A DNA stretch of 64,000 bases from Kiritimatiellia bacterium (GTDB lineage Bacteria > Verrucomicrobiota > Kiritimatiellia > JAQICX01): positions 273 through 64,272 of the forward strand of contig JAQICX010000182.1 of NCBI GenBank assembly GCA_027858345.1, in the 5' to 3' direction. Positions within the stretch are counted from its first letter, which is position 1, and the number at the start of each line of letters is the position of its first letter. Both the position numbers and the translations under genes were made by a program. Below the pieces are notes generated by a model. That model made no database searches and had not been told where the DNA came from. It worked only from the letters and a program-made list of their open reading frames with translations. Shown here in pieces: positions 3,801 through 48,840 of the stretch.

Positions 3801-4676
3801 TTAAAACAGCAATAATTCTGGTTGCTTTAACTCTTTCACAAACCCATGAAATTCATATGTTTCATAGAACTGAACTAACTCATTAAAACCAGGATGCCTT
3901 ATTTTAAAATCAGAAGCAGAAATCTCACCAATATCAACTAAATAATCTAAGCTGACAAGTTTTATATTTCTGCTTATAATTTCCTCAGCGCTCTGGATTT
4001 TCTCTTGCAATTTTGGGTTTTCAATCTTTGCCAAGCAATCTTCAAAAGGTTCAAGACTGCCCACATCATTAAGAACTTTTGTTGCTGTTTTGTGTCCAAC
4101 ACCTTGAACACCTGCAATGTTATCTGCATTATCTCCAATTAATGCAAGCCAGTCCACAACCTGCTCTGGATAAACCCCCGTCTTGTCTTTAACCTCTTGA
4201 GCCCCCATCTTTATTGGAAGACCTGCAACAGAAACCATTTTGATGTTATCAGATATCATCTGCATCATATCTTTATCACCCGTGGCAACCAAAATTTCAT
4301 CGTACTCGTTCTTTAAACGTTTTCCAAGGGTTGCAATCACATCATCAGCTTCCTGCATATCAATTTTCATAGTGCATATATTTGAAACTTTTAGAAATTC
4401 ATTAAGTGGTTCAAACTGCGCTCTTAACTCATCAGGCATTGGAGGTCTTTGGGCTTTATACTCAGGTAAAAGCTCCATTCTTTTCTTCGGTAGGCCACCA
4501 TCAAACACAACAATTAAGTCACTTGGTTGCCAATCCTTAATAGAACGGTTTAGCATCTTAATAAAACCATATAAAGCATTCGTAGCTAAACCATCGCTCC
4601 GCTTTATATTTTTAATTGCATAAAACGCTCTATAAAAATATGCCATTCCATCTATGATTAAAAGTTTTCCTGCCAT
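3801..4676 (-). CDS. 5'-3' exonuclease (FEN family, Pol I N-terminal-domain homolog; ExoIX/YpcP-like stand-alone flap endonuclease)
   Basis: 291 aa; LLIIDGMAYFYRAFYA...TNALYGF...DLIVVFDGG...GDKDMMQ...IPGV.GVG.KTA motifs of 5'-3' exonuclease domain; no polymerase domain follows. Confidence 0.8.
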   Translation of the reverse strand: MAGKLLIIDGMAYFYRAFYAIKNIKRSDGLATNALYGFIKMLNRSIKDWQPSDLIVVFDGGLPKKRMELLPEYKAQRPPMPDELRAQFEPLNEFLKVSNICTMKIDMQEADDVIATLGKRLKNEYDEILVATGDKDMMQMISDNIKMVSVAGLPIKMGAQEVKDKTGVYPEQVVDWLALIGDNADNIAGVQGVGHKTATKVLNDVGSLEPFEDCLAKIENPKLQEKIQSAEEIISRNIKLVSLDYLVDIGEISASDFKIRHPGFNELVQFYETYEFHGFVKELKQPELLLF

Positions 4677-4754
4677 CTTGTCTCCTTCTTAAATCTTATG
4701 GGCATAAAAAAAGTACGACAACAATGCCGTGCTCTTTTTAAATAAGAATATCAA

Positions 4755-7520
4755 TTATTGATTAGCCTGATCTGCTTCTTCCTGAAGCTTATCAGCAATC
4801 AAATCTGCACTTGAATCTTCAACTGGACGACCAGCTGGGTCAACAAGTCTTGCTGTAACAAAAATCAACAAGTTACGTTTTTCACTTTGGCTTGTTTTGC
4901 TCTGAAAGAATTTTCCAATAATAGGTATATCACCTAAAAGAGGAATCTTATCAATTGTGTCAACACGCTTTTCTGTAATCATACCACCCATTACAACAGT
5001 TGCACCATTATAAATTGAAATACTTGTCTGAACTAGTCTTGTGTGGAAGAAAGGTTGCTCCATATTAAGCTGTTGGACATTTCCTTCCTGATCTGTATAT
5101 GTAGTACCATAGTTTTTCCAATCAGGCTCTGTAACAACTTCTGGAGTCATATTTAGAGTAATCATTTGACCTTCAGGACTAACGTCTGGTTGAACAGTAA
5201 GAATCACACCAACTTCACGCATTTGAAAATCCTGAGGTTCAACGATACCACCAATGATAACCGCAGTATCATTAATAGCAGTCTGCCCTGTAACAGGAGT
5301 AACCGTATATGCAGTTGGATAAATATATTCTGTGACAACTTTAATTGTTGCTTCTTGACCTGTCTGAGTTGTAACCTTTGGAGATGACAGCAAATCAGCA
5401 TGACCTTTTTGCTCCAATGCATGAATAACAAGTCCAAGTTCCGGGTTTGTAAGAATACCAGCAATTGAAAGAACAGAGTCAGCAACGTTTGCAGCATCTG
5501 CAGTAACAACGTCAGACATAAATCTGTTACCAGTTGTAAAACCACCTGATGCACTATTAGCAGCAATATCTACTCTTGGCGCAGCTCCTGGAGCATAATT
5601 GCCATTCTTTGATGCAAGAGTGAAGTCATCATTAAGGAACCATTCAAATCCTAGAGAGTTCATATCCTTTTCATTTACTTCAACAAAACGAGCTTCAATT
5701 TCAATCTGGTTAGGGACAACATTTAGTTCATTAAGAATTCCTTCAAAATCTATTAAGTTATCTTCTGTGTTTGCAACAACAATTTTACCAATTGATCTGA
5801 TGTATTGAATTTGAGAACCAACAGGCCATTTAACTCCCATCTTCGTGAAAAACTCTTTCCAAGGAACAGCAGTTGCCTCCGTACCACCTGCATCACCAAA
5901 ACCAAAACCATCCCCAACTCCACCTGCATTCATTGACAACTCATTGCCAACTGATGGAATTTTATCTTCAACAGATGGTAGAACATCATATGTCTTAACA
6001 ATAATCTTGCCATCAGGAGCATCCGCTGGAACAATCATAACAACAGAACCATCAATTCTGTATTTCAATTTAGAAATTTCTGTAACAATATTTAAAGCCT
6101 CTAGCAATGATATGTATCTTGAACTAAATGTAATAGATTGTTGACCACTTGAATCTGCAACCGCTGTGGTTGGAATTGAGAACGGATCTGGCTCACTTGT
6201 CGTTGCAACAGGCTCGGCATCAGCACCAAGATTAAGAATTATATTTACACCTTTTTCTTCTTGAGGAGAATCTGATGTGTCATAGTCAATAGATGCTCGT
6301 TGTAAAAAGTCAATAACATCAACAATATTTGCCTGACGGAAATTTAACTCAGGTATAATAATGCTTTTCATTTTTTCTGCAATACGAACCTTTTTGTCGT
6401 CTGATATTAATATAGGCTTAGTATTCCGCATTTTATCGGTAGCGCCCTTGTTTACAGCAACATAGCTATCAGGACTCCATTTGTCTCTAACTTCAGCCAT
6501 CATATTAGCACGAGTTGCTTCTGCTTCTTTTGTATTAATTGTGTACTTGTTTCTACCACAAGTTTCTAATAATTTGATTGCATCACGATTATATGGTTCA
6601 AGAGCTAAAACACCCTCAAGCATTAGAACTGCTTCATCGTAATTACCAACAGCCATATACTGTTTTGCTTTCACAAGAAATAGATTTACATCTGTTTGAA
6701 GATCTTTGTAACTATTCTTCTGCCATTCAAGATTTGAATCTTTTTGTTCGACAACAGGAGGTGATTCTTGATACTCAACACATTTTTTTACAAGAGCAGG
6801 AGCTTTGCGGTAACCATACTGAGCTGATTCACGAGCATTGTTTTCTGCAATCTGATAATCACCCTGCTCCATAAGAATAAGTGCTCTCGCATAATATGTT
6901 TCGCCAAGCCTATTTGGAATCTGGTCTTTATAAACTCTAGCTTCTGTACTATTGTTCAAATATTTATTAGCTTCTTTATAAAGACGAATTGCTTGTGCAT
7001 ATCTTTCATTCTTATATGACTCTTCGGCTTCTTTAAAAGTTTTGATACCAAATAATGTTTCAGCCTCTTTTTTGTTGATTTCAAGCTGAATCATTGTGTT
7101 GATATCTGTTTCATCATTTGCAACAGTTGATACAACAGGCTTAACAGGCTCAGCTGTTACATCTGTAGCAAGATCACCAAAGCTGTTCATTGCTGCTAAC
7201 TCCTCTTCAGGTTCAACAGCAACTTCATCAGCAGTGGTTTCCGGCATGGTTTCTGCTTCATCAATATCCATTGTGACTTCTGGTTCGTCAAGATCAAGAA
7301 GATCGCTCACATCAGAAGAGCCGCCGGATCCAGGACTGTTAACTGTGACATCAACACTTGCATTCGTATCCGCTTTGTTCTCAACAGCAACAGGGCTGAC
7401 AGGTTCATCAAGCAACAAGTCTTCATCAAGCAAGAACTCATCATCTTGTGCAACAAGACCTTGAAAAGTTAATGCCGAACATACAACAGCTGTCAACATA
7501 AATATATTTTTCTTTGTCAT
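4755..7520 (-). CDS. Secretin (GspD/PilQ family outer-membrane channel) with signal peptide, long acidic N-terminal region and TPR-like segment
   Basis: 921 aa; signal peptide MTKKNIFMLTAVVCSALTFQGLVAQ; C-terminal secretin signature ...KIPLLGDIPIIGKFFQSKTSQSEKRNLLIFVTARLV. Confidence 0.8.
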   Translation of the reverse strand: MTKKNIFMLTAVVCSALTFQGLVAQDDEFLLDEDLLLDEPVSPVAVENKADTNASVDVTVNSPGSGGSSDVSDLLDLDEPEVTMDIDEAETMPETTADEVAVEPEEELAAMNSFGDLATDVTAEPVKPVVSTVANDETDINTMIQLEINKKEAETLFGIKTFKEAEESYKNERYAQAIRLYKEANKYLNNSTEARVYKDQIPNRLGETYYARALILMEQGDYQIAENNARESAQYGYRKAPALVKKCVEYQESPPVVEQKDSNLEWQKNSYKDLQTDVNLFLVKAKQYMAVGNYDEAVLMLEGVLALEPYNRDAIKLLETCGRNKYTINTKEAEATRANMMAEVRDKWSPDSYVAVNKGATDKMRNTKPILISDDKKVRIAEKMKSIIIPELNFRQANIVDVIDFLQRASIDYDTSDSPQEEKGVNIILNLGADAEPVATTSEPDPFSIPTTAVADSSGQQSITFSSRYISLLEALNIVTEISKLKYRIDGSVVMIVPADAPDGKIIVKTYDVLPSVEDKIPSVGNELSMNAGGVGDGFGFGDAGGTEATAVPWKEFFTKMGVKWPVGSQIQYIRSIGKIVVANTEDNLIDFEGILNELNVVPNQIEIEARFVEVNEKDMNSLGFEWFLNDDFTLASKNGNYAPGAAPRVDIAANSASGGFTTGNRFMSDVVTADAANVADSVLSIAGILTNPELGLVIHALEQKGHADLLSSPKVTTQTGQEATIKVVTEYIYPTAYTVTPVTGQTAINDTAVIIGGIVEPQDFQMREVGVILTVQPDVSPEGQMITLNMTPEVVTEPDWKNYGTTYTDQEGNVQQLNMEQPFFHTRLVQTSISIYNGATVVMGGMITEKRVDTIDKIPLLGDIPIIGKFFQSKTSQSEKRNLLIFVTARLVDPAGRPVEDSSADLIADKLQEEADQANQ

Positions 7521-7686
7521 AAAGATATAATCTCCATTTCTTCATTCTTTATTAAATGGGCAATGTTTCAAATCAAAACAAAATAACCCTATAACCTGTC
7601 ATTACAACAGGTGTTCAATCATAACTAACTGTTTATTATCAAGGACTTACAAATATTCCAAGATAAAAATCCTCTAAAAACTCTAT

Positions 7687-8703
7687 TTATTTCCCTTCAA
7701 AAACAAGGACTTCATCGTCATCAATGCGCTTTATTACTATATTTTGACCCGAGTTGTCAACATGAATAAACTGATATGGCTTATTTTTTAGCTTAAATGT
7801 ATCACCAGCACGTAATTTGAATTCTTCACCTGTGATGTTAAACTTAAGGGTTACAGTGTATTCTTTATACGCAGTACCTTTACCTTCGATAAGATCAATT
7901 TTTTTCCCGGAAGGAGATATCAAACGCAAAACATCTTTATCTCGCTCTCCCTCATTCTGAGCTTTTGCAGCACCTTTTCCAAAATTTGACAGTGTGAACC
8001 CTTCAACCTTTTCCCCGAGTTTCTTAAAATGAGTTCTATCACCATTCTTTAGATTTATCTGGAACATTCTAGATTTATCTGGTAGCAACGATGAACCTTT
8101 AAACAATAGATTAAATGGGTCAGCAACCACTGAAACAACTTTCAATTCTGTGTCTGGTGGTGGATAACTATTTGGATCCGATAGACTCGTATTTGACTTA
8201 AACTCAACAATGTTTGAGAATCCATCACCATCTGCATCAGCCATTGAATCATCAAGACGATGGTTTAAACCATGCTCTTTTTCATACATATCAGGTATTC
8301 CATCCTTGTCTCCATCATATTTTTCGTCAAGTGATCTAAGTGGTGGCTGTACTGTTTGACAAAAAGGACATTTCTTTGCAAAGTATGCTATTGGTATTTT
8401 GCAGTCAATACAAACAACTCTTGACTCTGGAACAAACATAGCAACATTTGTCCAACCTGGATCAGCTAAATTTAACTGATACGGATTTGTAATCTCTGCT
8501 ATTGTGTCCTCGTACTGAGAAACATCTAAAACAGATGCATTAGGGTTAGCCTTGGTGTAAGAAACAATCTCGTTTTCAACTTCAGCCATATCTTTAACAC
8601 CCTGCCCAACATTTATATATAGGTAGGCAGCTGTTGCCAACAAAGCAATAACCACCAATATTAAAATAATTTTATCATAAGAACTTTTTATCATAGAAAT
8701 CAT
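7687..8703 (-). CDS. Membrane-anchored hypothetical protein with CxxC...CxxC zinc ribbon and thrombospondin-type-3-like Ca-binding repeats (DGDKDGIPD, DADGDGFSN); pilus/secretion-cluster associated
   Basis: 338 aa; N-terminal TM helix; CIDCKIPIAYFAKKCPFC; acidic D-x-D-G-D repeats; sits between secretin and PilMN genes. Confidence 0.6.
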   Translation of the reverse strand: MISMIKSSYDKIILILVVIALLATAAYLYINVGQGVKDMAEVENEIVSYTKANPNASVLDVSQYEDTIAEITNPYQLNLADPGWTNVAMFVPESRVVCIDCKIPIAYFAKKCPFCQTVQPPLRSLDEKYDGDKDGIPDMYEKEHGLNHRLDDSMADADGDGFSNIVEFKSNTSLSDPNSYPPPDTELKVVSVVADPFNLLFKGSSLLPDKSRMFQINLKNGDRTHFKKLGEKVEGFTLSNFGKGAAKAQNEGERDKDVLRLISPSGKKIDLIEGKGTAYKEYTVTLKFNITGEEFKLRAGDTFKLKNKPYQFIHVDNSGQNIVIKRIDDDEVLVFEGK

Positions 8704-8714
8704 AATGCAGCACT

Positions 8715-9722
8715 CTACTTATCTTCTTGGTTATATGTTTTATCAAATCTGTAAACTTCAATACCAATTGTTACTTCCATTGGCACCTCCAACTCTAAAC
8801 CAGAAACTAATCTTTCTGGACGGGATAGCTCCTTCAGTGTAACACCATCAGCCAAGGCCTTTGCTTCAATCGTTGATGAAGGTAAGATTCCATTGTTAGG
8901 CTTTATAAATTTAACTGTTGAAACTCGAAGGAACATCTTTTCCTTTGAAATATTGTTCAAAATTTCTAAAGCACTCTGCATCTTTGCCTTAATCACGAAT
9001 TCAAAGTACATTTTTCCAAAAATTTCATTTCGAACAATCCTGCCTGTTTCAGGGTTTGTCATCCCCTGAACACTGTTAGCTTTTGGAGTAGGCTCACCTC
9101 CACGACTATTTCTTCCACGACGGCTGCTACGAGATCTACTGTCTGTTTCTTCCTCTTCAGTATCTGAAGTGCTGTTAACTTGAGACCCCTCAAAGAGCTC
9201 TCTTTTAATTGCTATAATCTCTTGTGGCTTAGCCTCACAAAATATAGTAACCAATCGTTCCACAAGAAACAGTTGCTGACCAAGTCTTCCAACATCTCTA
9301 GGTGCAGGAAGAGCATTGGCCTCAAAATACTTTTTGAAACCAAGATCAAACTCAGCTGGCATCTTAACATTATTCTCTCTTATAAGAGCAAACATCTCTG
9401 TTCTTTTCTCACCTAAAGTGGACATAAATGCTGATGGACTCTTCTGTACCGGCTCAACTTGTTGAGCAGCCAAGTTATTTAAAATGTCGTCAAACCATTT
9501 CTGAAGTTCTACATCATGTTCCTTGTATACATCAATATTCTCTTCTGTTGGAAACGGGTTGCTATCTTCATAAATTCTTTTGATTGAATCTTTAGCCCCG
9601 GTCATCTCCGACATTGCTTCATTGTAACCTAAAAAACCTAAAACAAGCATTGTGCCTGATCCAATAAGCATTAATGCACCAACCGCTATGGCGACCCACA
9701 AAACTATTTTTCCTGATTTCAT
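8715..9722 (-). CDS. Membrane-anchored hypothetical protein of the T4P-like cluster; positional and size equivalent of Akkermansia Amuc_1100-type pili-like protein
   Basis: 335 aa; N-terminal TM; charged low-complexity middle; gene order secretin-X-Y-PilM-Z matches Amuc_1098-1102 locus (recalled from literature, not verified by alignment). Confidence 0.55.
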   Translation of the reverse strand: MKSGKIVLWVAIAVGALMLIGSGTMLVLGFLGYNEAMSEMTGAKDSIKRIYEDSNPFPTEENIDVYKEHDVELQKWFDDILNNLAAQQVEPVQKSPSAFMSTLGEKRTEMFALIRENNVKMPAEFDLGFKKYFEANALPAPRDVGRLGQQLFLVERLVTIFCEAKPQEIIAIKRELFEGSQVNSTSDTEEEETDSRSRSSRRGRNSRGGEPTPKANSVQGMTNPETGRIVRNEIFGKMYFEFVIKAKMQSALEILNNISKEKMFLRVSTVKFIKPNNGILPSSTIEAKALADGVTLKELSRPERLVSGLELEVPMEVTIGIEVYRFDKTYNQEDK

Positions 9723-9735
9723 AATAAATCCTACC

Positions 9736-11403
9736 TTATCTGATTCTTATAGGGGTTTGCAAAGCAACATATATCTTAAATTTATGAGTGTAATCACCAG
9801 CAACAAGAGGTGGTTGCTCTTTTATTGCCGTGCCATCCGTAAATCCAGGAAACTCTTTTAGACGAGTTGTAAAAACCTCTAAAACAGTCGTATCACCTTT
9901 TACGATTGCCCTTGCTTTATCTTCAAAAATCTCACCCTCTATCTCAACACCGGCAGCCATTCCATTATTTACTACAGGCTTAAAGGATGTTAACCACATA
10001 CCTTCCAGCATAGCATTATGAACCCCGTCAAGAACCAATAACCATGATGTCTTTGATGCAACGAGATCTACAAGCTTTCCTACCTCTTTTTCCTCTGCTT
10101 TCTGAGCTCTCACAGCATCTCTAAGCTTCTTATCCAAACTCTCCAACCGTAACTTTTCATTCTCGATATTGATTGTGTTATCTTTTGCAAGAACTGTCAT
10201 ATGATGAAAATACCAAGCCCAGCAACTCATGGCAACAGCGGCAAGTACAACTGAAGCAACAAAGAATGGCCTACGCTTGCGCATTATTTTTTGTGCAACA
10301 ATTGATGCCGGCATCAAATTAATCTCAATAGGACATCCTCCTGCATACCTTACACCAAGACCAACAACCTCTCCAAGTACTGTAACATCAGCATTAAGCT
10401 GGTCGACAGAAATATTTGGTGATATACTTATACTTTTAAAAGGATTTAAATACTCAACATCAACACGAAGTTTTTCATTAAAAAAAGTATTTAAATGAGG
10501 AATAATCGAACTACCACCTGCAAGAAGAATTGATGTAGGAGCACTTCCTGACTGCTGACTTCTATAAAAATTTATAGATCTGTTAACTTCCGCATGTAAA
10601 CGTGTTAACACATTTCTTACTATCTTTGAAATTTTTTCTGTGTCAGGATCTTCTGACATAGAATAAACACCACCAAGTGCAACAACTGCTTTTTCTTTTT
10701 TGAGTTTTTCTGCCTCTTCAAAGGTCAAATTGAACTCTTTCATAATCTCTTGGGAGATTGTATTGCCAGCAACTGTAATACTACGACTAAAAACTTTGTT
10801 TCCTTCAACAAAAACAAGGTTAGTTGAACGCGCACCAATATCAAGAACCATTGTACAAGCATCTGTTGTTATTTCCGGATAACTCATTCTTACAAGATTA
10901 TAAAGTGCTAAAGGAGCCGTATCAATTATTTCAGGCTCAAGACCTAAAGTCTGAACACAGTCTGTCAGAGCTGTAACATTCTCTGTCTTAACAGCAACAA
11001 GCATAACCTTCTTTTCATCATCAAGACCATCATCAAGTAACTGATAATCCCAAACAACTTCGTCAATCGGAAATGGGACATTTTGTTGTGCTTCGTACTC
11101 AACAATTTGTTGAATCTTATCACCTTCAACAGGCGGCAACTTAACATAGCGCGGAAAAACTGCCTGGCCAGAAATAGACATGTATAACTGAACGCCAGAT
11201 CTTATACCACGCTCTTTCATTAGATCTCTTAAAGCTGATACTATATATGCAGATGAATCAACATTGCTTTCAGGTAAAACACCCAAATCTGCAACTCCAT
11301 AATTGATAAGTTCTGGCACACCATTCTTACGTGTCACAAACTCAGCAACTACAATTTTACTGGCACCAATATCAAGTGCAATCATTCTATCTGGACTAAA
11401 CAC
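9736..11403 (-). CDS. pilM: Type IV pilus assembly protein PilM (actin-like ATPase fold) fused to PilN-like C-terminal TM/coiled-coil domain
   Basis: 555 aa; N-terminal IALDIGASKIVVAEF... acetate/sugar-kinase/FtsA-like fold; after ~aa 365 a TM helix (FFVASVVLAAVAMSCWAWYF) and coiled coil typical of PilN. Confidence 0.75.
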   Translation of the reverse strand: MFSPDRMIALDIGASKIVVAEFVTRKNGVPELINYGVADLGVLPESNVDSSAYIVSALRDLMKERGIRSGVQLYMSISGQAVFPRYVKLPPVEGDKIQQIVEYEAQQNVPFPIDEVVWDYQLLDDGLDDEKKVMLVAVKTENVTALTDCVQTLGLEPEIIDTAPLALYNLVRMSYPEITTDACTMVLDIGARSTNLVFVEGNKVFSRSITVAGNTISQEIMKEFNLTFEEAEKLKKEKAVVALGGVYSMSEDPDTEKISKIVRNVLTRLHAEVNRSINFYRSQQSGSAPTSILLAGGSSIIPHLNTFFNEKLRVDVEYLNPFKSISISPNISVDQLNADVTVLGEVVGLGVRYAGGCPIEINLMPASIVAQKIMRKRRPFFVASVVLAAVAMSCWAWYFHHMTVLAKDNTINIENEKLRLESLDKKLRDAVRAQKAEEKEVGKLVDLVASKTSWLLVLDGVHNAMLEGMWLTSFKPVVNNGMAAGVEIEGEIFEDKARAIVKGDTTVLEVFTTRLKEFPGFTDGTAIKEQPPLVAGDYTHKFKIYVALQTPIRIR

Positions 11404-12056
11404 TATTTTATTACCTCATAACTATCAATATTCATAAATACAAAAGGTGACTCTTTTTTATTCAAAAGATACCCGGAACGAGGAATCAAAACATTACTCT
11501 CCATTATGCGAGGGTTGTTCCACCAATTATCTCCAAAAATTTGTCTCACAGAGTTAGCAACTTCTCCCGTAGCTTCAATCACTACACCATCAACACTTAA
11601 AATAACTGCCGCAGCAACCGCCTTACCATATCTCTTTTCTGCGTTAGGATGCAAAAATGCTGATGCAAAATGCTGTCTACCTTGCTCTACATCAATATAT
11701 GTAACGCTTTTCTTATATACACTGTATCTCTGAACATTCTTACCATCCTCACGTTCAACTTTCAAGGTAACAACAATATATTCAATCTTTAGTTCATCAA
11801 TCCACTCTGGTATTGTCTGATACTCAACATTCAAACGACGCCACTCGGGGGCTCTCCCTGACTTTGAAATTCCTGGCTCATCCTGTATACCATAACTAGG
11901 AGTTTTCACAAGGTTCTTGGAGTCGCTCAACGCACTAAAGCTTTTCAACTTCAACGGTGGTGGTTGTTGTTGATTTTGCTGAGCAAGTGCAACAGAACAA
12001 ACACTTACCAACATAACTACTGTCATAAAACTTCTTAAAACTCTAATATTCATCAT
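11403..12056 (-). CDS. Secreted hypothetical protein, first gene of the T4P-like cluster
   Basis: 217 aa; signal peptide MMNIRVLRSFMTVVMLVSVCSVALAQ followed by Q/P-rich stretch; start overlaps PilMN stop (11403). Confidence 0.55.
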   Translation of the reverse strand: MMNIRVLRSFMTVVMLVSVCSVALAQQNQQQPPPLKLKSFSALSDSKNLVKTPSYGIQDEPGISKSGRAPEWRRLNVEYQTIPEWIDELKIEYIVVTLKVEREDGKNVQRYSVYKKSVTYIDVEQGRQHFASAFLHPNAEKRYGKAVAAAVILSVDGVVIEATGEVANSVRQIFGDNWWNNPRIMESNVLIPRSGYLLNKKESPFVFMNIDSYEVIK

Positions 12057-12385
12057 CTTGCCCCTCTTCTGGTTGTTTATCGTAAATCGTTAAACACAAA
12101 GCACTTACGCATAAGCGACAGATTGCTTTGTAAAACCCGACCTTATTTAACAAAAAAATTTCTATAACCATACACCAATATGCCATAAAAATCAATGAAA
12201 AAAAATGGTTTGAAATAACTTTTTTTAATTTATGCTCTAATTTTATTAGTATTCTCTTAGTTTAAACAACTCAACTAGAGCATTTCGCTCATGAAACGCA
12301 GTACATATTTGTCCTGCGACTTCTGTTGAATCTTTCAAAAAAATAGGCAATTATAACCTCATATCTCACCAAAGTTTTCAATAGC

Positions 12386-12418
12386 AAAAAAAAGCGGAAT
12401 TCAAAAACAAATTCCGCT
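12386..12418 (-). terminator. Rho-independent terminator downstream of the RRM-protein gene
   Basis: Minus-strand reading: perfect 8-bp stem GCGGAATT / AATTCCGC (12394-12418) followed by U8 (plus-strand A8 at 12386-12393). Confidence 0.8.
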
Positions 12419-24164: not shown

Positions 24165-24746
24165 ATGTCAAAATTAACCCAAAAGGCACCATTAACCACT
24201 CCCGAAAAAGATATCTGTGCCAGAGCAATTTTCTGGAATGATCCTATACTGCAAATCTACCGCAAGAACCAATTGCAATATGATGACCAATGGAGCTCTA
24301 AGGTGATTAGCCGATACAAAAATATATTAAAAAGTATTGCAGATGTGCCCAAAAGCGATGAAGCATCTTTTGAATATGGAAAAACTCTCCTAAACATCTT
24401 GATTCATAAGCTTGAACTGATGGATAAACTCGATTGTGCATATGCAGAAAAAAACACGCAGAAACTCACAGCCATATCGCAGCTTGCATCTGAAATCATT
24501 AGCGAACTTGAAGAATTTTCAACATCTTTCAGAGAATATCAGTATGAAAGATACAACCCGCAAGGGTTCGAAATTCTTCAAATTCGCATTGGGGGACTCA
24601 AAGAAAGGTTCAAAGAAGTTTCGCTACGAGTTGAGGAATTGCTTCATGGCAAAATTGACTCAATCCCAGAGCTACACGAAAAGGCAAGCTACAGGCTGGT
24701 CAACAAGCACTACCACGACCTGGCAACCGCCTCATATTTTGTTTGA
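24165..24746 (+). CDS. Hypothetical cytoplasmic helical protein
   Basis: 193 aa ORF, no recognisable motifs. Confidence 0.5.
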   Translation: MSKLTQKAPLTTPEKDICARAIFWNDPILQIYRKNQLQYDDQWSSKVISRYKNILKSIADVPKSDEASFEYGKTLLNILIHKLELMDKLDCAYAEKNTQKLTAISQLASEIISELEEFSTSFREYQYERYNPQGFEILQIRIGGLKERFKEVSLRVEELLHGKIDSIPELHEKASYRLVNKHYHDLATASYFV

Positions 24747-24949: not shown

Positions 24950-26314
24950 TCAATGCTCTAGAATTTTTCCTGTGGATGCATTGAGGTTTTCTATTGCAAG
25001 AATTCTAGACAATCGTTCTCTTGCCAAAGCTGACTCTGCTGCAACAGCGTCTGTTTGCACTTGATTCAACCGAGTCACAGAAACAAGACTGGCGTTATAC
25101 TCTTCCGTGACAACATTCTCTATCTCATCTGCCAACCTATATATTTCATCACTCTTCTGCAACGACAAATTCTGAATTTCAAGATTATCACTTGCTACTC
25201 TGACATCTGCAACAACATCAATCTGAGTTTTTCTGTACAAATCAGAAGCAGCTGAAGCATCTGCTTTTGTTGCTCGAACTTTCCCGTGTCTCATACCACC
25301 ATCAAAAAGATCCCATGATGCCACCACACCAACAAATGCTTCTGTATTTTCATCTTTGTTTAGGGCGTCAGTATCATCAACACCATTATATCCATAACGA
25401 CCTGTTGCAACTACAGTAGGCATATAACTACCTTTTTCTGCAGATACAGCTGCTTCAGCTTGATCCAATTCAAGCTCTTTCTGCAAAAGATCAGGACGAT
25501 GATCCACCGCATATAATATTTCTTTATCAAAATCCACTAAAAATTCTTTATACTCCTGCTCAAGATTTGAAACTGATTGAACATCGTTTGTAACAGTTCC
25601 ATCGTCAACCCCCATGAGTCTAGCCAAAGCAATTCTGGCTTGACGTTTAGACAATTCTGCAGCCAGTGCCTGGTTTTCAGAAGCAATTTTACGCATTTTA
25701 AAATTCATCACATCAGATCTTGATGCGGCACCTGCAAGATTTCTATCGCGAGTTTCTTTATAAAGCACCTCGTTCAACTTTGCAGTTTCAATTGCAATTC
25801 TCTGTTGTTCTCCGGCAAACAATACAGCCAAGTATGCTTGAGAAACTCCTTGAAGAAGAAGTCGCTGTGCATCAAGAGTAGAGTTTTCGCTTATTTCTTC
25901 TCCATATTTCGCAGCCATTATCCTATATTTACGGGATAAGCCATCAAATAGCAGCCATGAAACATCGACTCCTGCCTTATAATTGTCGTGAGAGCCTAAA
26001 GCTCCTTGGGAGCCGGGCACTTCTTCCATTCTGTAGGCTGAGCCATAGGCACTAACGGTAGGTAACCAAGCAGATTTTGCCTGTTGAGCAATCGCAGATG
26101 CAGCCTCAATACGTGTCATTGCTGCTTGCAGTCCAGGATTTCCGGACAAGGCAATTTCTTTTGCCTGTTTCAGTGTGAGAAGTCCATTAACAACCTCCCC
26201 TTTTTCTACAAAACTATCAGGTATACTTGCTGAGTCTTGAGCCGAAAGATTACTCACTGTCATAGGCAATGACAACCCAATTAAAATTATTATTATAGAT
26301 ATTTTATCTTTCAT
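24950..26314 (-). CDS. Outer-membrane efflux factor (TolC/OprM family) with its own signal peptide, currently in frame with the upstream RND gene
   Basis: C-terminal 454 aa of the 1476-aa ORF; begins MKDKISIIIILIGLSLPMTVSNLSAQ (signal peptide) and shows OMF coiled-coil/barrel repeats (…LFDGLSRKYRIMAAKY…, …LFDGGMRHGKVRATKADASAASDLY…). Confidence 0.75.
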   Translation of the reverse strand: MKDKISIIIILIGLSLPMTVSNLSAQDSASIPDSFVEKGEVVNGLLTLKQAKEIALSGNPGLQAAMTRIEAASAIAQQAKSAWLPTVSAYGSAYRMEEVPGSQGALGSHDNYKAGVDVSWLLFDGLSRKYRIMAAKYGEEISENSTLDAQRLLLQGVSQAYLAVLFAGEQQRIAIETAKLNEVLYKETRDRNLAGAASRSDVMNFKMRKIASENQALAAELSKRQARIALARLMGVDDGTVTNDVQSVSNLEQEYKEFLVDFDKEILYAVDHRPDLLQKELELDQAEAAVSAEKGSYMPTVVATGRYGYNGVDDTDALNKDENTEAFVGVVASWDLFDGGMRHGKVRATKADASAASDLYRKTQIDVVADVRVASDNLEIQNLSLQKSDEIYRLADEIENVVTEEYNASLVSVTRLNQVQTDAVAAESALARERLSRILAIENLNASTGKILEH

Positions 26315-29300
26315 AATTTTCTTTTTTCCTCTTCGTGTTCCAAAATCATAAAGTATAGGGACAACAAACAGTGTCAATATACCCGAAATCAAAATGCCAC
26401 CAGCGGAAGCAATACCAACACCATTTCTGGCTTCAGCGCCTATTCCTTGAGCCAAGCCCATTGGCAGCATGCCAAAGAAACCGGCAAATGTAATCATAAT
26501 AATTGGTCTCATCTGATCTCCAGCAGCAGTAATCATTGCTTTATGTACAGGCATTCCTTCTCTAAGATGTACATTGAGTTGTTCCATAATCAAAATTGCA
26601 TTGTTCACCACAATCCCAATAAGCATAACTATGCCCATAATCACAAACACAGATATACTCTCATTCATCAATAATAACGCCCAGAACACACCAATCAATC
26701 CAAGTGGAAGTGTAACTAAAATTAATGCTGGTTGTTTCCACGACTCCATAATCGCAGCCAGTGTCAAAATAACCAAAATGATAGCTAACAAACCTGCTTC
26801 ACCAAGACTTGCCTGGCTCTCTGCCATGTTTTCTGCATCGCCAGAAAAAATAATTTCATACCCAGGTGGTAAAAGCTGCTCTTTGTCAACATATGAAGCA
26901 ATAACCCCAATAGCTATTCCAAGAGGAAAATCAGGATTCAAATTACTTGTTAATTTTGTGACTCGCCTTTTGTCTCTACGAAGAATCTGCACAGGAGTGT
27001 TGACTTCCTCAAAATTCACAAACGATTCAACCGAAACTGGTTTGCCAGGAAGTCCCGGAACAGAGAATGATTTAACTTGATCTTTGCCTTGTATTTCTTC
27101 ATATTTAACAACAATATCATAATTTCTGTCACCTTGTTTAAATGTGCCAATCTCAATACCTTCAAGATTACCTCTCAATGACATTCCAAATGTAGTTGCA
27201 GAAATACCAAGATCACTGAAAATTGCTCTCTTAGGAAACATTTTGAGCTTATTCTTGCCCAGACGTACTGATGTGTCAACGTCGCTAAAGCCTGGATAAT
27301 TTTCACAATACTGCTTAATATTTAAAGATAAAGCATTAAGAACATCCAACTCATCACCAACAATATAAGCCTCAACAGGTGTGCTGATGCCTCCAATTAA
27401 CGATGGGATAAACGCCCCGGTTAAACAATCGGTTATACCCGTCAATCTGTTTCGAACAATCTCAAGCAAATCATAAATAGTTGCATCTCGTTCATCCCTT
27501 TCCAAAAATTTCAATTGAACTTGCCCAAGATATACACCTTCCGATGCCTGACCGGCAATACCTTGAATTTTGCCAACAGTCACTAGACTACTTGTAAGTC
27601 CTGGCAAATCATCAAACAGTTTTGCAATTTCCAGAACACGTCCAACGCTGTTGTCCAATGAATATGAGGTAGGAAACTCTAAACGAACTGTAATTGAACC
27701 CTTATCCAGATCAGGAAAGAAACTGCCACCAACAGCCTTTGCCGACTTCAAGGCAGACATAAACATTAAAACTACCGCAATAATAAAAAGTATTGCAAAA
27801 ATCTTTCTTTTTTCAAACAAACGCAATAGTTTTCTATATGCGCTGATAACCTTGTCAAGTCCGGCATTGAACTTGTTTTCAAAAAATGCAAGAACACCCT
27901 TGTTTTTTCGACTTGTTAAAAGCTTTGCACATAACATTGGTGTTAATGTGAAAGATATAAAGAGTGATACAAGAGTCATAATAAGCATTGTCAAAACCAA
28001 TGGTTTAAGAAACATTGCAACCATACCGCCCATCATAGCAATAGGAAGAAGCACAACACAATTTGTTCCAGCTGACGCTAAAACAGGAAGCCAGGAATCT
28101 GAGGCTCCAAGTCTCGCTGCCTCTTTTGGATCTTTACCCTGCGAAATGTGCTTGCTTATTGCCTCCATAACCACAATGGAATTGGTTACAAGAATACCCA
28201 CACTCATACCAATTGATATCAATGTTGACATATTCAATGTATAATTCATTAGCCCCATAAAGAAAAGACCAATAACAATCGTAAGTGGCATTGTTATACA
28301 TACAACAAACGTTGTTCTAATATTATAAAGAAACAAAAATAGAATCAATCCCGTGAGCACAACACCCATTGCAACATTTTCCCAAGCACTATCTACAGAT
28401 GCCTTGATAAACTTTCCCTCATCATTAACCCACTTAAGATCCATTCCTCCTGGTAATTGCTCCTTCAATTTTGAAAACTCTGACCGAACAGAATCAACAA
28501 CTTCAACAGCATTTGCATCCGCAAGCTTAACAATTTCAATTGCTATGCAAGATGCACCATCGAGAAAAGCCTTTTGCCTAATCTCTTCAGTTGTCATGAC
28601 AGCCTTGCCAACATCTTTCAAATATACCCGCTTACCATCAACATTTGCAACTTCCAGTTCATTAAAGTCTACAACTTCCAAAGGGTCAGCATCAAATTCA
28701 ACAGTATATTCAAAACCATTATCTTTGACTCTACCTGATGGAATCAAACCAATTGCTGAATTAATATTTTGAGCTACTATTCCAGAGGTCAGCCCTCTTG
28801 CAGCAAGTTTATCTCTATCTATAAGAATATGAACTTCACGCTTAGCACCACCAATCAGCGTACACTCTGCAACACCTGCAATGGACGACAACCGGTCTTT
28901 TAAAGTATTATCAGCATAATCATACAGATCGGCAATGGGCAAATCACCAGTCAATGCAAGCTTCACAACAGGAACGGCATTAACATCAAATTTTTCCACG
29001 ATAGGATCTTCAACCCCTGCAGGGAAATCACCAGCAATTAAACCAATTTTTTCTCGCACATCCATCGCTGCAATATCAATATCTGTACCATATTCAAACT
29101 CAAGAAACGTAAAGCACACATTTTCCATAGCTGTTGACTCAACATGTTTAATGCCATTGAGAGTCATCACTTTATCTTCAATTCTCTTTGCAACATCAGT
29201 CTCTATCTGTTCAGGACTTGCTCCGGGAAAAATTGTTTTAATCGTAATGATCGGTGCATCGATACTCGGAAGCATCTCCAAACCCATCTTACGATAAGTA

Positions 29301-29380
29301 TTGAACCCTAGTAAAACCAGGGCAATCAACAAACAAGACATCGCAATAGGACGCCTAATTGACGCATTTGATAAAAACAT
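26315..29380 (-). CDS. RND multidrug efflux transporter (AcrB/HAE1 family); lacks a stop codon and reads through an A6 tract into the OMF gene
   Basis: N-terminal 1022 aa of the 1476-aa ORF; 12-TM RND architecture, MFLSNASIRRPIAMSCLLIALVLLGF..., ends ...FGTRRGKKKI then MKDK. Confidence 0.85.
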
Positions 29381-47394: not shown

Positions 47395-48840
47395 TCAATA
47401 TCCGCTGCCGCCACGCATTGGACCACGACATGCAAGGGGATTGAGAGAACGCAACTTCTTGCTGTCAAAATCTCCTTCACTGGTAATTAGTTTGCCATCA
47501 GCAACAAGATCACTCTTGTTCTTTTCCAGATATTTAATCAAAGCATCTCTAAGCTCAGTCAATTCATTGGTAAATCGAGGATCACTAACAAGATTATTCA
47601 TATCATCAGGGTCTGCCTGAATGTTAAACAGCTGCTCAACACCACCCTCTTTATAAAAAATGTATTTCAGCTCATCCTTATAAACAGCAGCACTACCTGG
47701 AACTTCACCATAAATGTATCTATCATCTGAAACATCGATTGCTGGATTCATCAAAGGAATCAAACTCTGCCCCTCTGCAGTCTCATCTTGCTCAATGCCA
47801 ATCATATCAAACAGTGTTGGGCATATATCCGCAGTCTGAACAGGTGTACCATCCAGAACCGAACGATCAAAACGAGAATCATTGGCTGGTGGACGGAAAA
47901 TCAACGGCACTCGTGCAGCCGACTCCAAAAAGCTATGTTTTGTGAACAAACCATGATCTCCAAGACACTCTCCATGATCAGATGTAAATATAATTGCCGT
48001 ATCTCTATCAACACCATGAGTCTTAAGAGATCCAAACAGACGCCCCAAATGATAGTCAATTTGACTAATCTGACCATAATAGCGTCGACGTGACTCCCTT
48101 ATAATCTCCGGTGTCAAATCGTCCCAATTATAAATCACCTCACGCTTCTGAAACATTGCAGGCAAATCATCATCAACCCAATCACCCTTGACTGGATCCG
48201 ATATTGTAAAGTTATCATACATGCGATCATATGGTGGAGGTGGATCAAAAGGACTGTGTGGTGCCTCAAAAACAAGATAGAGCATAAATGGCATTTCGGG
48301 GTCTCTTTGATCCAAGAACCTAATTGACTCATCAATTGACCAAGTCGTGTGATAATATTTGTCAGGAGTTATTGCCACACCGGGATAAACCTCATTGCCT
48401 CCAAGTCCTTGACCTCTAAAGGCTCCACCATAACCATGGTCTTCCAGCCACCAGATATAATCATCAGGGTGCAATGTCACATGTTCAAAACCATTACGAG
48501 AACGAGATGGTGCAAAATGCATCTTGCCAATAGCTTTTGTCTGATAGCCAGCTTCACGAACTAATCTTGCAGGCAAAGTGCTTTGTCTATCAAAGTCGGG
48601 AGCATTGTTTTCATTAAAATTGTTTATACAACGCATTTGGGAACCTGTCTTTCCCGTTAACATAGTCACTCGCTGAGGCATACATATTGGACAATCTGCA
48701 TAGGCTTGACTAAACAAAATTCCTTCAGATGCCAGTTGATTCAGATGAGGAGTCATAACAGGATGGTTGTTCTTATAGAGTCCGAGACAATCGCCCCGCC
48801 ATTGATCTGCAACAATATAAATTATATTTGGTTTTTTCAT
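47395..48840 (-). CDS. Sulfatase (formylglycine-dependent arylsulfatase family), no signal peptide
   Basis: 481 aa; N-terminal IIYIVADQWRGD and C-x-P-x-R (CMPQR) motif; …FTSDHGE…. Confidence 0.85.
   Translation of the reverse strand: MKKPNIIYIVADQWRGDCLGLYKNNHPVMTPHLNQLASEGILFSQAYADCPICMPQRVTMLTGKTGSQMRCINNFNENNAPDFDRQSTLPARLVREAGYQTKAIGKMHFAPSRSRNGFEHVTLHPDDYIWWLEDHGYGGAFRGQGLGGNEVYPGVAITPDKYYHTTWSIDESIRFLDQRDPEMPFMLYLVFEAPHSPFDPPPPYDRMYDNFTISDPVKGDWVDDDLPAMFQKREVIYNWDDLTPEIIRESRRRYYGQISQIDYHLGRLFGSLKTHGVDRDTAIIFTSDHGECLGDHGLFTKHSFLESAARVPLIFRPPANDSRFDRSVLDGTPVQTADICPTLFDMIGIEQDETAEGQSLIPLMNPAIDVSDDRYIYGEVPGSAAVYKDELKYIFYKEGGVEQLFNIQADPDDMNNLVSDPRFTNELTELRDALIKYLEKNKSDLVADGKLITSEGDFDSKKLRSLNPLACRGPMRGGSGY

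Follow-up and report, generated by a model that had tools for sequence, protein, structure and literature searches.

A divergent Kiritimatiellae member of the Amuc_1098-1102 gene cluster and its probable role in a type IV filament machine

Analysis of a 64-kb stretch of DNA (contig JAQICX010000182.1; the whole stretch is called the window below) from a Kiritimatiellae metagenome-assembled genome (MAG) revealed that five genes at positions 4755-12056 formed a divergent but clear member of the Amuc_1098-1102 kind of cluster, known in Akkermansia as MUL2. The locus probably encodes two parts of a type IV filament (pilus-like) machine, the scaffold that spans the envelope and the pore in the outer membrane, in the form specific to the Planctomycetes-Verrucomicrobia-Chlamydiae (PVC) bacteria and first observed in Akkermansia. 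The set was best read as a divergent PilM-N/O/P/Q module, in which the two genes that had looked unknown would encode a PilO-like protein and a probable PilP/GspC-like protein.

Gene order, family assignment and distribution

The five open reading frames (ORFs) were co-directional on the minus strand and encoded proteins of 217, 555, 335, 338, and 921 residues (aa) in transcription order, with gaps of -1, 13, 11, and 166 nucleotides (nt) along the block. All five proteins are present in NCBI as MDA3799639-643 (locus tags PF692_11225-11245) with a Kiritimatiellae MAG as the source; because of these records and the many homologues, the ORFs are real genes and not chance ORFs. The 217-, 338-, and 921-aa proteins are named hypothetical in NCBI, whereas the 555-aa protein is called “type IV pilus assembly protein PilM” and the 335-aa protein “Amuc_1100 family pilus-like protein”. 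The features of the block, in transcription order, were:

12393..12418, minus strand: terminator-like hairpin with an 11-bp stem and a T-run, after the upstream RRM gene; upstream operon boundary
11403..12056, minus strand: 217-aa Amuc_1102-family protein (NCBIfam, PDB 7DSZ match, PF28178)
9736..11403, minus strand: 555-aa PilM-PilN fusion, Amuc_1101 family (Pfam PilM_2, TIGR01175, NCBIfam)
8715..9722, minus strand: 335-aa Amuc_1100-family, PilO-like protein (NCBIfam, PF28028, structure model and Foldseek)
7687..8703, minus strand: 338-aa Amuc_1099-family protein (NCBIfam)
7521..7686, minus strand: intergenic spacer of 166 nt before the secretin gene, with a small hairpin and a promoter-like site
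4755..7520, minus strand: 921-aa secretin, Amuc_1098 family (Pfam Secretin and TPR, NCBIfam)
4715..4730, minus strand: terminator-like hairpin directly past the secretin stop codon; downstream operon boundary

The NCBIfam scan showed that the five proteins matched the Amuc_1102, 1101, 1100, 1099, and 1098 models one-to-one and in gene order, with the following scores:

217 aa, Amuc_1102_rel: 57.4 bits (cutoff 55), E 1.4e-15, above cutoff
555 aa, Amuc_1101_fam: 510.8 bits (cutoff 650), E 6.5e-153, below cutoff
335 aa, Amuc_1100_fam: 80.4 bits (cutoff 180), E 1.5e-22, below cutoff
338 aa, Amuc_1099_fam: 77.5 bits (cutoff 50), E 1.3e-21, above cutoff
921 aa, Amuc_1098_fam: 430.6 bits (cutoff 750), E 1.1e-128, below cutoff, covering aa 132-901

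Judged from these profiles, the five proteins belong to the families in a broad sense but are not equivalogs of the Akkermansia proteins. The Pfam scan of the five matched solely PilM_2 in the 555-aa protein and Secretin and TPR in the 921-aa protein. Precomputed matches of newer Pfam models on the identical proteins placed PF28178 (Amuc_1102) on the 217-aa protein and PF28028 (Amuc_1100) on the 335-aa protein, and both models were unmatched when the window proteins were run through hmmscan with a Pfam copy that covers models up to 2025.

As in the window, the Akkermansia Amuc_1098-1102 (MUL2) cluster carries the five families on one strand and in the identical order. The sizes were similar (217/555/335/338/921 aa here and 186/608/326/321/805 for the Amuc_ model lengths), and the window secretin likewise had the N-terminal part with TPR repeats that the Amuc_1098 model spans. 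In contrast, the window sequences were very divergent, and the secretin had an additional acidic N-terminal stretch of ~120 aa. Its host, a Kiritimatiellae MAG of 38% GC, is no gut mucin specialist.

An earlier reading of the DNA without database searches (the sequence-only reading) had proposed five co-directional, tightly packed genes in the order of Amuc_1098-1102. The packing was borne out by the ORF coordinates, the strand, and the gaps of -1/13/11/166 nt, and the order by the NCBIfam matches, the 7DSZ match of the first protein, and the Foldseek and profile matches to Amuc_1100. That reading would have been abandoned if the 335-aa protein had lacked similarity to Amuc_1100; such similarity was detected in the Foldseek top ten and with a family profile (E=1e-9). 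Its gene descriptions (signal-like, PilM-PilN, membrane-anchored, CxxC/Ca-repeat, and secretin) also agreed with the segments, motifs, and domains seen here. It had found no recognisable domains in the genes at 7687-8703 and 8715-9722, and this had to be revised, as Amuc_1099_fam, Amuc_1100_fam, and PF28028 match there.

A scan for related loci using an eight-sequence Amuc_1100-family alignment and two peptide patterns yielded 73 loci, a biased sample and no census, which says nothing on absence from groups such as Planctomycetes. The loci came from MAGs of the Victivallales/Lentisphaerae, Kiritimatiellae, Opitutales/Puniceicoccaceae, Verrucomicrobiaceae, and Akkermansiaceae, and those of the Opitutales/Puniceicoccaceae included the isolate Thalassobacterium sedimentorum. 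Iterated hidden Markov model (HMM) searches revealed that, wherever a locus was long enough, 1101-1100-1099-1098 followed one another in this order and on one strand. A detectable 1102 homologue preceded the module in most loci outside the Opitutales. In the Opitutales/Puniceicoccaceae (L048-L076), the Amuc_1102 position, ~600-700 nt upstream of PilM-N, was occupied by a co-directional ORF of ~195-220 aa with marginal similarity to the Amuc_1102-family HMM; this ORF may represent either a strongly diverged equivalent or a replacement. The identities of the window proteins to their homologues in two sets of lineages were:

PilM-N fusion: ~50% in other Kiritimatiellae/Victivallales; ~34-36% in Verrucomicrobiaceae/Akkermansiaceae
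Secretin: 44-48% in other Kiritimatiellae/Victivallales; 29% in Verrucomicrobiaceae/Akkermansiaceae
1099-like protein: 31-38% in other Kiritimatiellae/Victivallales; 23% in Verrucomicrobiaceae/Akkermansiaceae
1102-like protein: ~35% in other Kiritimatiellae/Victivallales; marginal in Verrucomicrobiaceae/Akkermansiaceae
1100-like protein: 27-30% in other Kiritimatiellae/Victivallales; ~25% over a partial alignment in Verrucomicrobiaceae/Akkermansiaceae

A published survey of MUL2 dealt with Verrucomicrobiales, and the cluster was less conserved in Chthoniobacterales and undetected in Methylacidiphilales (PMC13174399). Its presence in Kiritimatiellae and Lentisphaerae widens this range modestly. 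One 1.8-kb contig with an Amuc_1100/1099 pair (L035) was binned as “uncultured Chitinophagales”; it is most likely a mis-binned PVC contig and not an occurrence in Bacteroidota.

Architecture of the five proteins

The 555-aa protein consisted of an actin-like PilM domain (aa 7-355; nt 10339-11385), the peptide INLMP directly past this domain (aa 361-365; nt 10309-10323), a single transmembrane (TM) helix (aa 379-399; nt 10207-10269), and a PilN-like periplasmic tail of ~155 aa (aa 400-555). The N-terminal part was matched by Pfam PilM_2 (1.2e-44, 153 bits), by TIGR01175 pilM above its cutoff (172.4 bits against 133), and by PilM structures in the PDB (3JC8 at 9e-40, 2YCH at 3e-33, and also 5EOX). 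INLMP, which we take to be the N-terminal PilN peptide that binds PilM in complexes such as 2YCH and 5EOU, followed a pattern, [IV]NL[LM]P, that was kept in 64 of the 67 homologues of the fusion. The profile of the C-terminal family matched PilN of Myxococcus 3JC8 (E=1.1e-5); Pfam PilN was matched by 7 of 44 C-terminal family members on their own and left the window protein unmatched. At the level of sequence, these results showed PilM and PilN, both complete, in a head-to-tail fusion, so the cytoplasmic actin-like domain would be tethered through INLMP and one TM helix to the periplasmic PilN-like domain.

The 335-aa protein carried an N-terminal TM anchor (aa 2-32). A word-index search with its family alignment returned only nine close relatives, and an exhaustive HMMER search and a deeper alignment were needed. 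The HMMER search found 821 cluster representatives at E<=1e-3 and 454 at E<=1e-10, nearly all of which were 300-370 aa long and matched across most of their length. Neither the protein alone nor a profile of its close family matched any PDB sequence; the profile of 88 family members matched the Amuc_1100 crystal sequences (6KNY) at E ~1e-9. In the AlphaFold2 (AF2) model, the TM helix was followed by helices and an alpha-beta-beta/alpha-beta-beta core, within which lay a charged, disordered insert (aa 177-235). The top ten Foldseek matches of the model in the PDB were all Amuc_1100 (6LAD, 6LAF, and 6KNY; E 4e-8 to 3e-7), with TM-scores (target) of 0.68-0.77 at a model confidence (pLDDT) of 56.8, and the next were the PilO structures 3JC8_O (3e-3), 2RJZ (2e-2), and 5UVR (4.5e-2). 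Pfam PilO was matched neither by the window protein nor by any of the 88 family members, and 10 of the 88 weakly matched T2SSM_b, the counterpart of PilO in the type II secretion system (T2SS). A resemblance of Amuc_1100 to PilO/PilN has been described (bioRxiv 10.64898/2025.12.30.696933; PMC13174399). The model thus showed an Amuc_1100 fold for the 335-aa protein, which would act as the PilO-type partner, presumably with its N-terminal helix in the inner membrane and paired with the PilN part of the fusion.

The 338-aa protein contained an N-terminal TM helix, a ribbon-like motif of four cysteines (C98, C101, C112, and C115; CxxC...CxxC) in a segment predicted to be periplasmic, thrombospondin-type-3-like DxDxDG repeats at aa ~128-165, and an all-beta C-terminal region (aa 187-336). 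The best fold match of this protein was the HR domain of GspC. Among 68 Amuc_1099-family homologues, the CxxC...CxxC motif was kept in 23 and the DxDxDG repeats in 42; because of this distribution, the motif and the Ca-type repeats appear to be lineage-variable additions to the family. The JGI label of the protein, “thiol-disulfide isomerase”, probably came from the CxxC motif. The 338-aa protein is a probable PilP/GspC-type connector to the secretin, and the same assignment for the Amuc_1099 family as a whole is tentative. On moderate fold evidence, the protein would be anchored in the membrane and span the periplasm, and its PilP/GspC-like beta domain would touch the secretin.

In the 921-aa protein, a signal-like N-terminus was followed by an acidic low-complexity stretch (aa ~30-130), a TPR region (aa ~159-318; nt 6567-7046), and a secretin domain (aa 701-894; nt 4839-5420). 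Pfam Secretin PF00263 matched at 1.2e-38 (132.8 bits), together with TPR models. Both subfamily models fell below their cutoffs, GspD TIGR02517 with 161.5 bits (cutoff 351.35) and PilQ TIGR02515 with 139.4 bits (cutoff 284.35), and structures of PilQ and GspD were matched at 8e-22 to 1e-13, the top PDB matches being PilQ. By these scores, the protein is a secretin outside the curated PilQ subfamily and about equally close to PilQ and GspD; its JGI name is “general secretion pathway protein D”. It would form the outer-membrane channel, and it carries its own TPR module. A metagenome copy of the same locus (JGI 3300051639; L002 7567-10332) contained the secretin as two ORFs, a 324-aa TPR part and a 582-aa secretin part, and the split could be explained by a frameshift, a stop variant, or a fault in the assembly.

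The 217-aa protein had a hydrophobic, signal-like N-terminal segment (aa 4-25) in which no prepilin motif was present, and its residues 78-214 aligned to the Amuc_1102 crystal sequence (PDB 7DSZ, E=7.5e-7). It is a putative exported protein and may be an accessory or surface component.

The filament scaffold and its alternatives

Comparison with the PilMNOPQ systems of Pseudomonas aeruginosa, Myxococcus xanthus (3JC8), and Thermus thermophilus showed that the gene order matched by function as M, N, O-like, P-like, and Q. The PilM domain with an INLLP-type motif, the PilN-like periplasmic part, and the secretin domain were shared, as was the position of the operon away from pilin and ATPase genes, and the fold of the 335-aa protein resembled PilO in weak matches. 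There were also differences. PilM and PilN were one polypeptide in the window, the PilO-like protein had ~335 aa with additional helices and the long disordered insert, and the PilP-like protein, in place of a lipoprotein signal, had a TM anchor, the four-cysteine motif, and Ca-type repeats. The secretin carried TPR repeats and scored below the PilQ subfamily cutoff, and an Amuc_1102-like gene additionally led the operon.

Several observations weighed against a type IV filament machine with a PilO-type Amuc_1100 protein. The ~40 other ORFs of the window were scanned with Pfam, and all six frames were searched with a regular expression for prepilin and T2SSE motifs; neither approach turned up a pilin, PilB/PilT, PilC, or prepilin peptidase gene in the window, and the filament partner is therefore an assumed one. 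Such neighbours were also not found in the flanks of the 73 related loci (up to 8 kb, shorter at contig ends), apart from one prepilin-like gene in locus L009. Three of the five proteins (1101, 1100, and 1098) missed the NCBIfam equivalog cutoffs, the AF2 model of the 335-aa protein was of low confidence (pLDDT 56.8), and its structural matches to PilO were weak (E 3e-3 to 4.5e-2). For Akkermansia, a surface or outer-membrane location of Amuc_1100 has been reported (PMC5332112), in conflict with a simple inner-membrane PilO role. The proposed role in glycan acquisition was carried over from Akkermansia by analogy.

The sequence-only reading had also pointed out that pilin, ATPase, and PilC genes were missing, which was true for the whole window by Pfam and six-frame regular expression, and it would have given way to an ordinary PilMNOPQ explanation if a canonical T2SS or type IV pilus operon with GspE/F-like genes had been present; none was found within the window. 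Its conclusion that the machine is non-canonical did not follow, because the 73 loci showed the same pattern, pilMNOPQ operons often lie apart from the pilin and motor genes, and Akkermansia has pilus genes elsewhere. Those Akkermansia genes outside the cluster (Amuc_1523-24, 1583, 0394, and 0745) were reported to be important in colonisation (bioRxiv 10.64898/2025.12.30.696933). For the machine proposed here, the genes of the filament subunits, the assembly ATPase, the platform protein, and the prepilin peptidase would likewise lie elsewhere in the genome.

MUL2 was reported to be needed for mucin acquisition (bioRxiv 10.64898/2025.12.30.696933; PMC13174399) and for its accumulation in intracellular compartments. 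The Amuc_1098-1102 proteins were abundant in the envelope fraction of Akkermansia (PMC5332112). By analogy with MUL2, the machine of the window may serve this glycan-degrading lineage in the capture of, attachment to, or uptake of polymeric glycans. The stimulation of TLR2 by Amuc_1100, the surface location, the abundance in the envelope, and the mucin role are known for Akkermansia alone.

The T2SS offered an alternative assignment, in which the fusion would be GspL, the 335-aa protein GspM, the 338-aa protein GspC, and the 921-aa protein GspD, and the complex would serve to export folded enzymes for glycan degradation, for example sulfatases and glycoside hydrolases, and not to build a surface pilus. 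GspL combines an actin-like domain in the cytoplasm, a single TM helix, and a ferredoxin-like domain in the periplasm within one chain, and the fusion was GspL-like in this overall architecture; in the alignment of its C-terminal family, one member matched GspL_C and one T2SSM. However, the GspL cytoplasmic domain was unmatched by sequence: this part of the fusion was PilM, above the TIGR01175 cutoff, with matches to PilM structures only and none to T2SSL/GspL, and the PilN N-terminal motif was kept. The connector was TM-anchored and closest in fold to the GspC HR domain, and the weak T2SSM_b matches in 10 of 88 Amuc_1100-family members fitted a GspM. The secretin resembled GspD and PilQ to about the same degree; with the Amuc_ model set aside, its best NCBIfam match was GspD (161.5 bits against 139.4 for PilQ), as in its JGI label, but the GspD score was far under the TIGR02517 cutoff (161 vs 351), and the top PDB sequence matches were PilQ. 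The gene order was unlike that of gsp operons, the GspE, F, G, and O genes were not adjacent in the window, and no GspE, GspF, or GspG gene was found nearby. In published work, the Akkermansia homologues were tied to mucin uptake and not to export. We consider such a secretion system unlikely.

A scaffold for a DNA-uptake (competence) pilus of the Thermus/Neisseria PilMNOPQ type, with the secretin as the gate for DNA entry, had a very low probability. The “competence protein PilM” 2YCH was among the best PDB matches of the 555-aa protein, and the “type IV pilus biogenesis and competence protein PilQ” (4AV2/9SH1) among those of the secretin, but these matches reflect general PilM/PilQ homology. 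No ComEA, ComEC, or DprA gene was found in the window, the Amuc_1100, 1099, and 1102 families were PVC-restricted in the 73-locus sample, and published accounts tie these families in Akkermansia to mucin use. Equally improbable was an envelope complex with no filament, either a gated pore for glycan import or a platform that displays the Amuc_1100/1102-like proteins. Such a complex would fit the finding that pilin and ATPase genes were not adjacent in the window or in the 73 loci, bar the L009 gene, although unlinked pilMNOPQ operons are common, and we know of no role for a PilM-type cytoplasmic domain besides that of adaptor to the PilB/PilC motor of type IVa pili. It would also fit the surface location of Amuc_1100 reported for Akkermansia (PMC5332112) and the link of the MUL2 genes to substrate import in published accounts; the Akkermansia pilus genes outside the cluster (Amuc_1523-24, 1583, 0394, and 0745), however, exist and matter.

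Under the preferred reading as a filament scaffold and pore, a further step is conceivable but doubtful: the module may be a distinct and ancient PVC lineage of type IV filaments that mainly imports large glycans or glycoproteins through the secretin and does not serve motility or adhesion. If so, PVC bacteria would have a general machine for polymer import, and the “mucinosome” uptake of Akkermansia would be a specialised instance of it. Amuc_1100 is among the most studied probiotic effector proteins, and the machine to which it belongs is poorly understood. The Kiritimatiellae locus, collinear and clearly orthologous, points to Amuc_1100 as a conserved and probably PilO-type structural component in an old envelope machine of PVC bacteria, which is supported by the four- or five-gene order in Lentisphaerae/Victivallales and Opitutales and argues against a gut-specific host-interaction factor. 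Free-living lineages that degrade glycans are now available as a setting for a role in substrate capture or uptake. The 335-aa protein was already labelled as Amuc_1100 family in GenBank. For the window, the analysis mainly gave better annotation, with names for three “hypothetical” proteins (217, 338, and 921 aa); it also added the PilM-PilN fusion with its kept motif, the tentative PilP/GspC assignment of Amuc_1099, and the collinearity across PVC lineages.

Operon boundaries and neighbouring genes

The five genes looked like a single operon because terminator-like hairpins bounded the block on both sides. The GTG start of the 555-aa gene overlapped the stop of the preceding 217-aa gene. The only long spacer (7521-7686) contained a promoter-like site (7571-7544, minus strand) and a small hairpin (ACCTGT..ACAGGT) that ended in a T-rich tail, and it may uncouple the expression of the secretin from that of the upstream genes. 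The GC content across the locus (0.36-0.38) agreed with that of the rest of the window; horizontal acquisition of the locus was rejected on this basis and because the downstream neighbour was syntenic in related genomes. An Rfam scan found no RNA element over the locus, and its sole match in the window was a tRNA-Asp outside it. A 47-codon ORF upstream of the operon (12043-12186) was considered as a hidden pilin and rejected, since its translation had no prepilin motif.

The other ORFs of the window were housekeeping or metabolic and encoded, among others, RpoD, an RRM protein, a 5'-3' exonuclease, glycosyltransferases, RND efflux, ribonucleotide reductase, arginine biosynthesis proteins, DnaG, LpxA/FabZ, and a sulfatase. 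The exonuclease gene (3801-4676, minus strand) lay directly downstream of the secretin gene on the same strand. Such a gene was located 0-163 nt past the secretin here and in at least 24 related loci (L004-L044) of Kiritimatiellae, Lentisphaerae, and unclassified Verrucomicrobiota, and it was not found past the secretin in the Opitutales loci. In L004, from a second Kiritimatiellae MAG, CoaE and Rho came after the exonuclease. These same neighbours have also been named for MUL2 loci of Akkermansiaceae (PMC13174399).

Upstream of the cluster, L004 carried a DUF1559/SBP_bac_10-like gene directly adjacent (L004 5467-6342), and L009, from a Victivallales MAG, had a gene with a clear prepilin N-terminus, GFTLIELL, ~2-2.3 kb away (L009 2453-3373). 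Both are possible pseudopilin partners, and their linkage was inconsistent across loci. Within the window, a sulfatase gene (47395-48840, minus strand) and an ORF that consisted of a GH20C C-terminal domain alone (24165-24746, plus strand) fit a glycan-degrading lifestyle of the host. A 1476-aa ORF (24950-29380, minus strand), followed by an HlyD-type adaptor gene and a TetR gene, combined a full AcrB-type RND pump (aa 4-1011) with an OEP/TolC-like outer-membrane factor from aa 1070; it is unusual for a pump of the inner membrane and a channel of the outer membrane to be fused.

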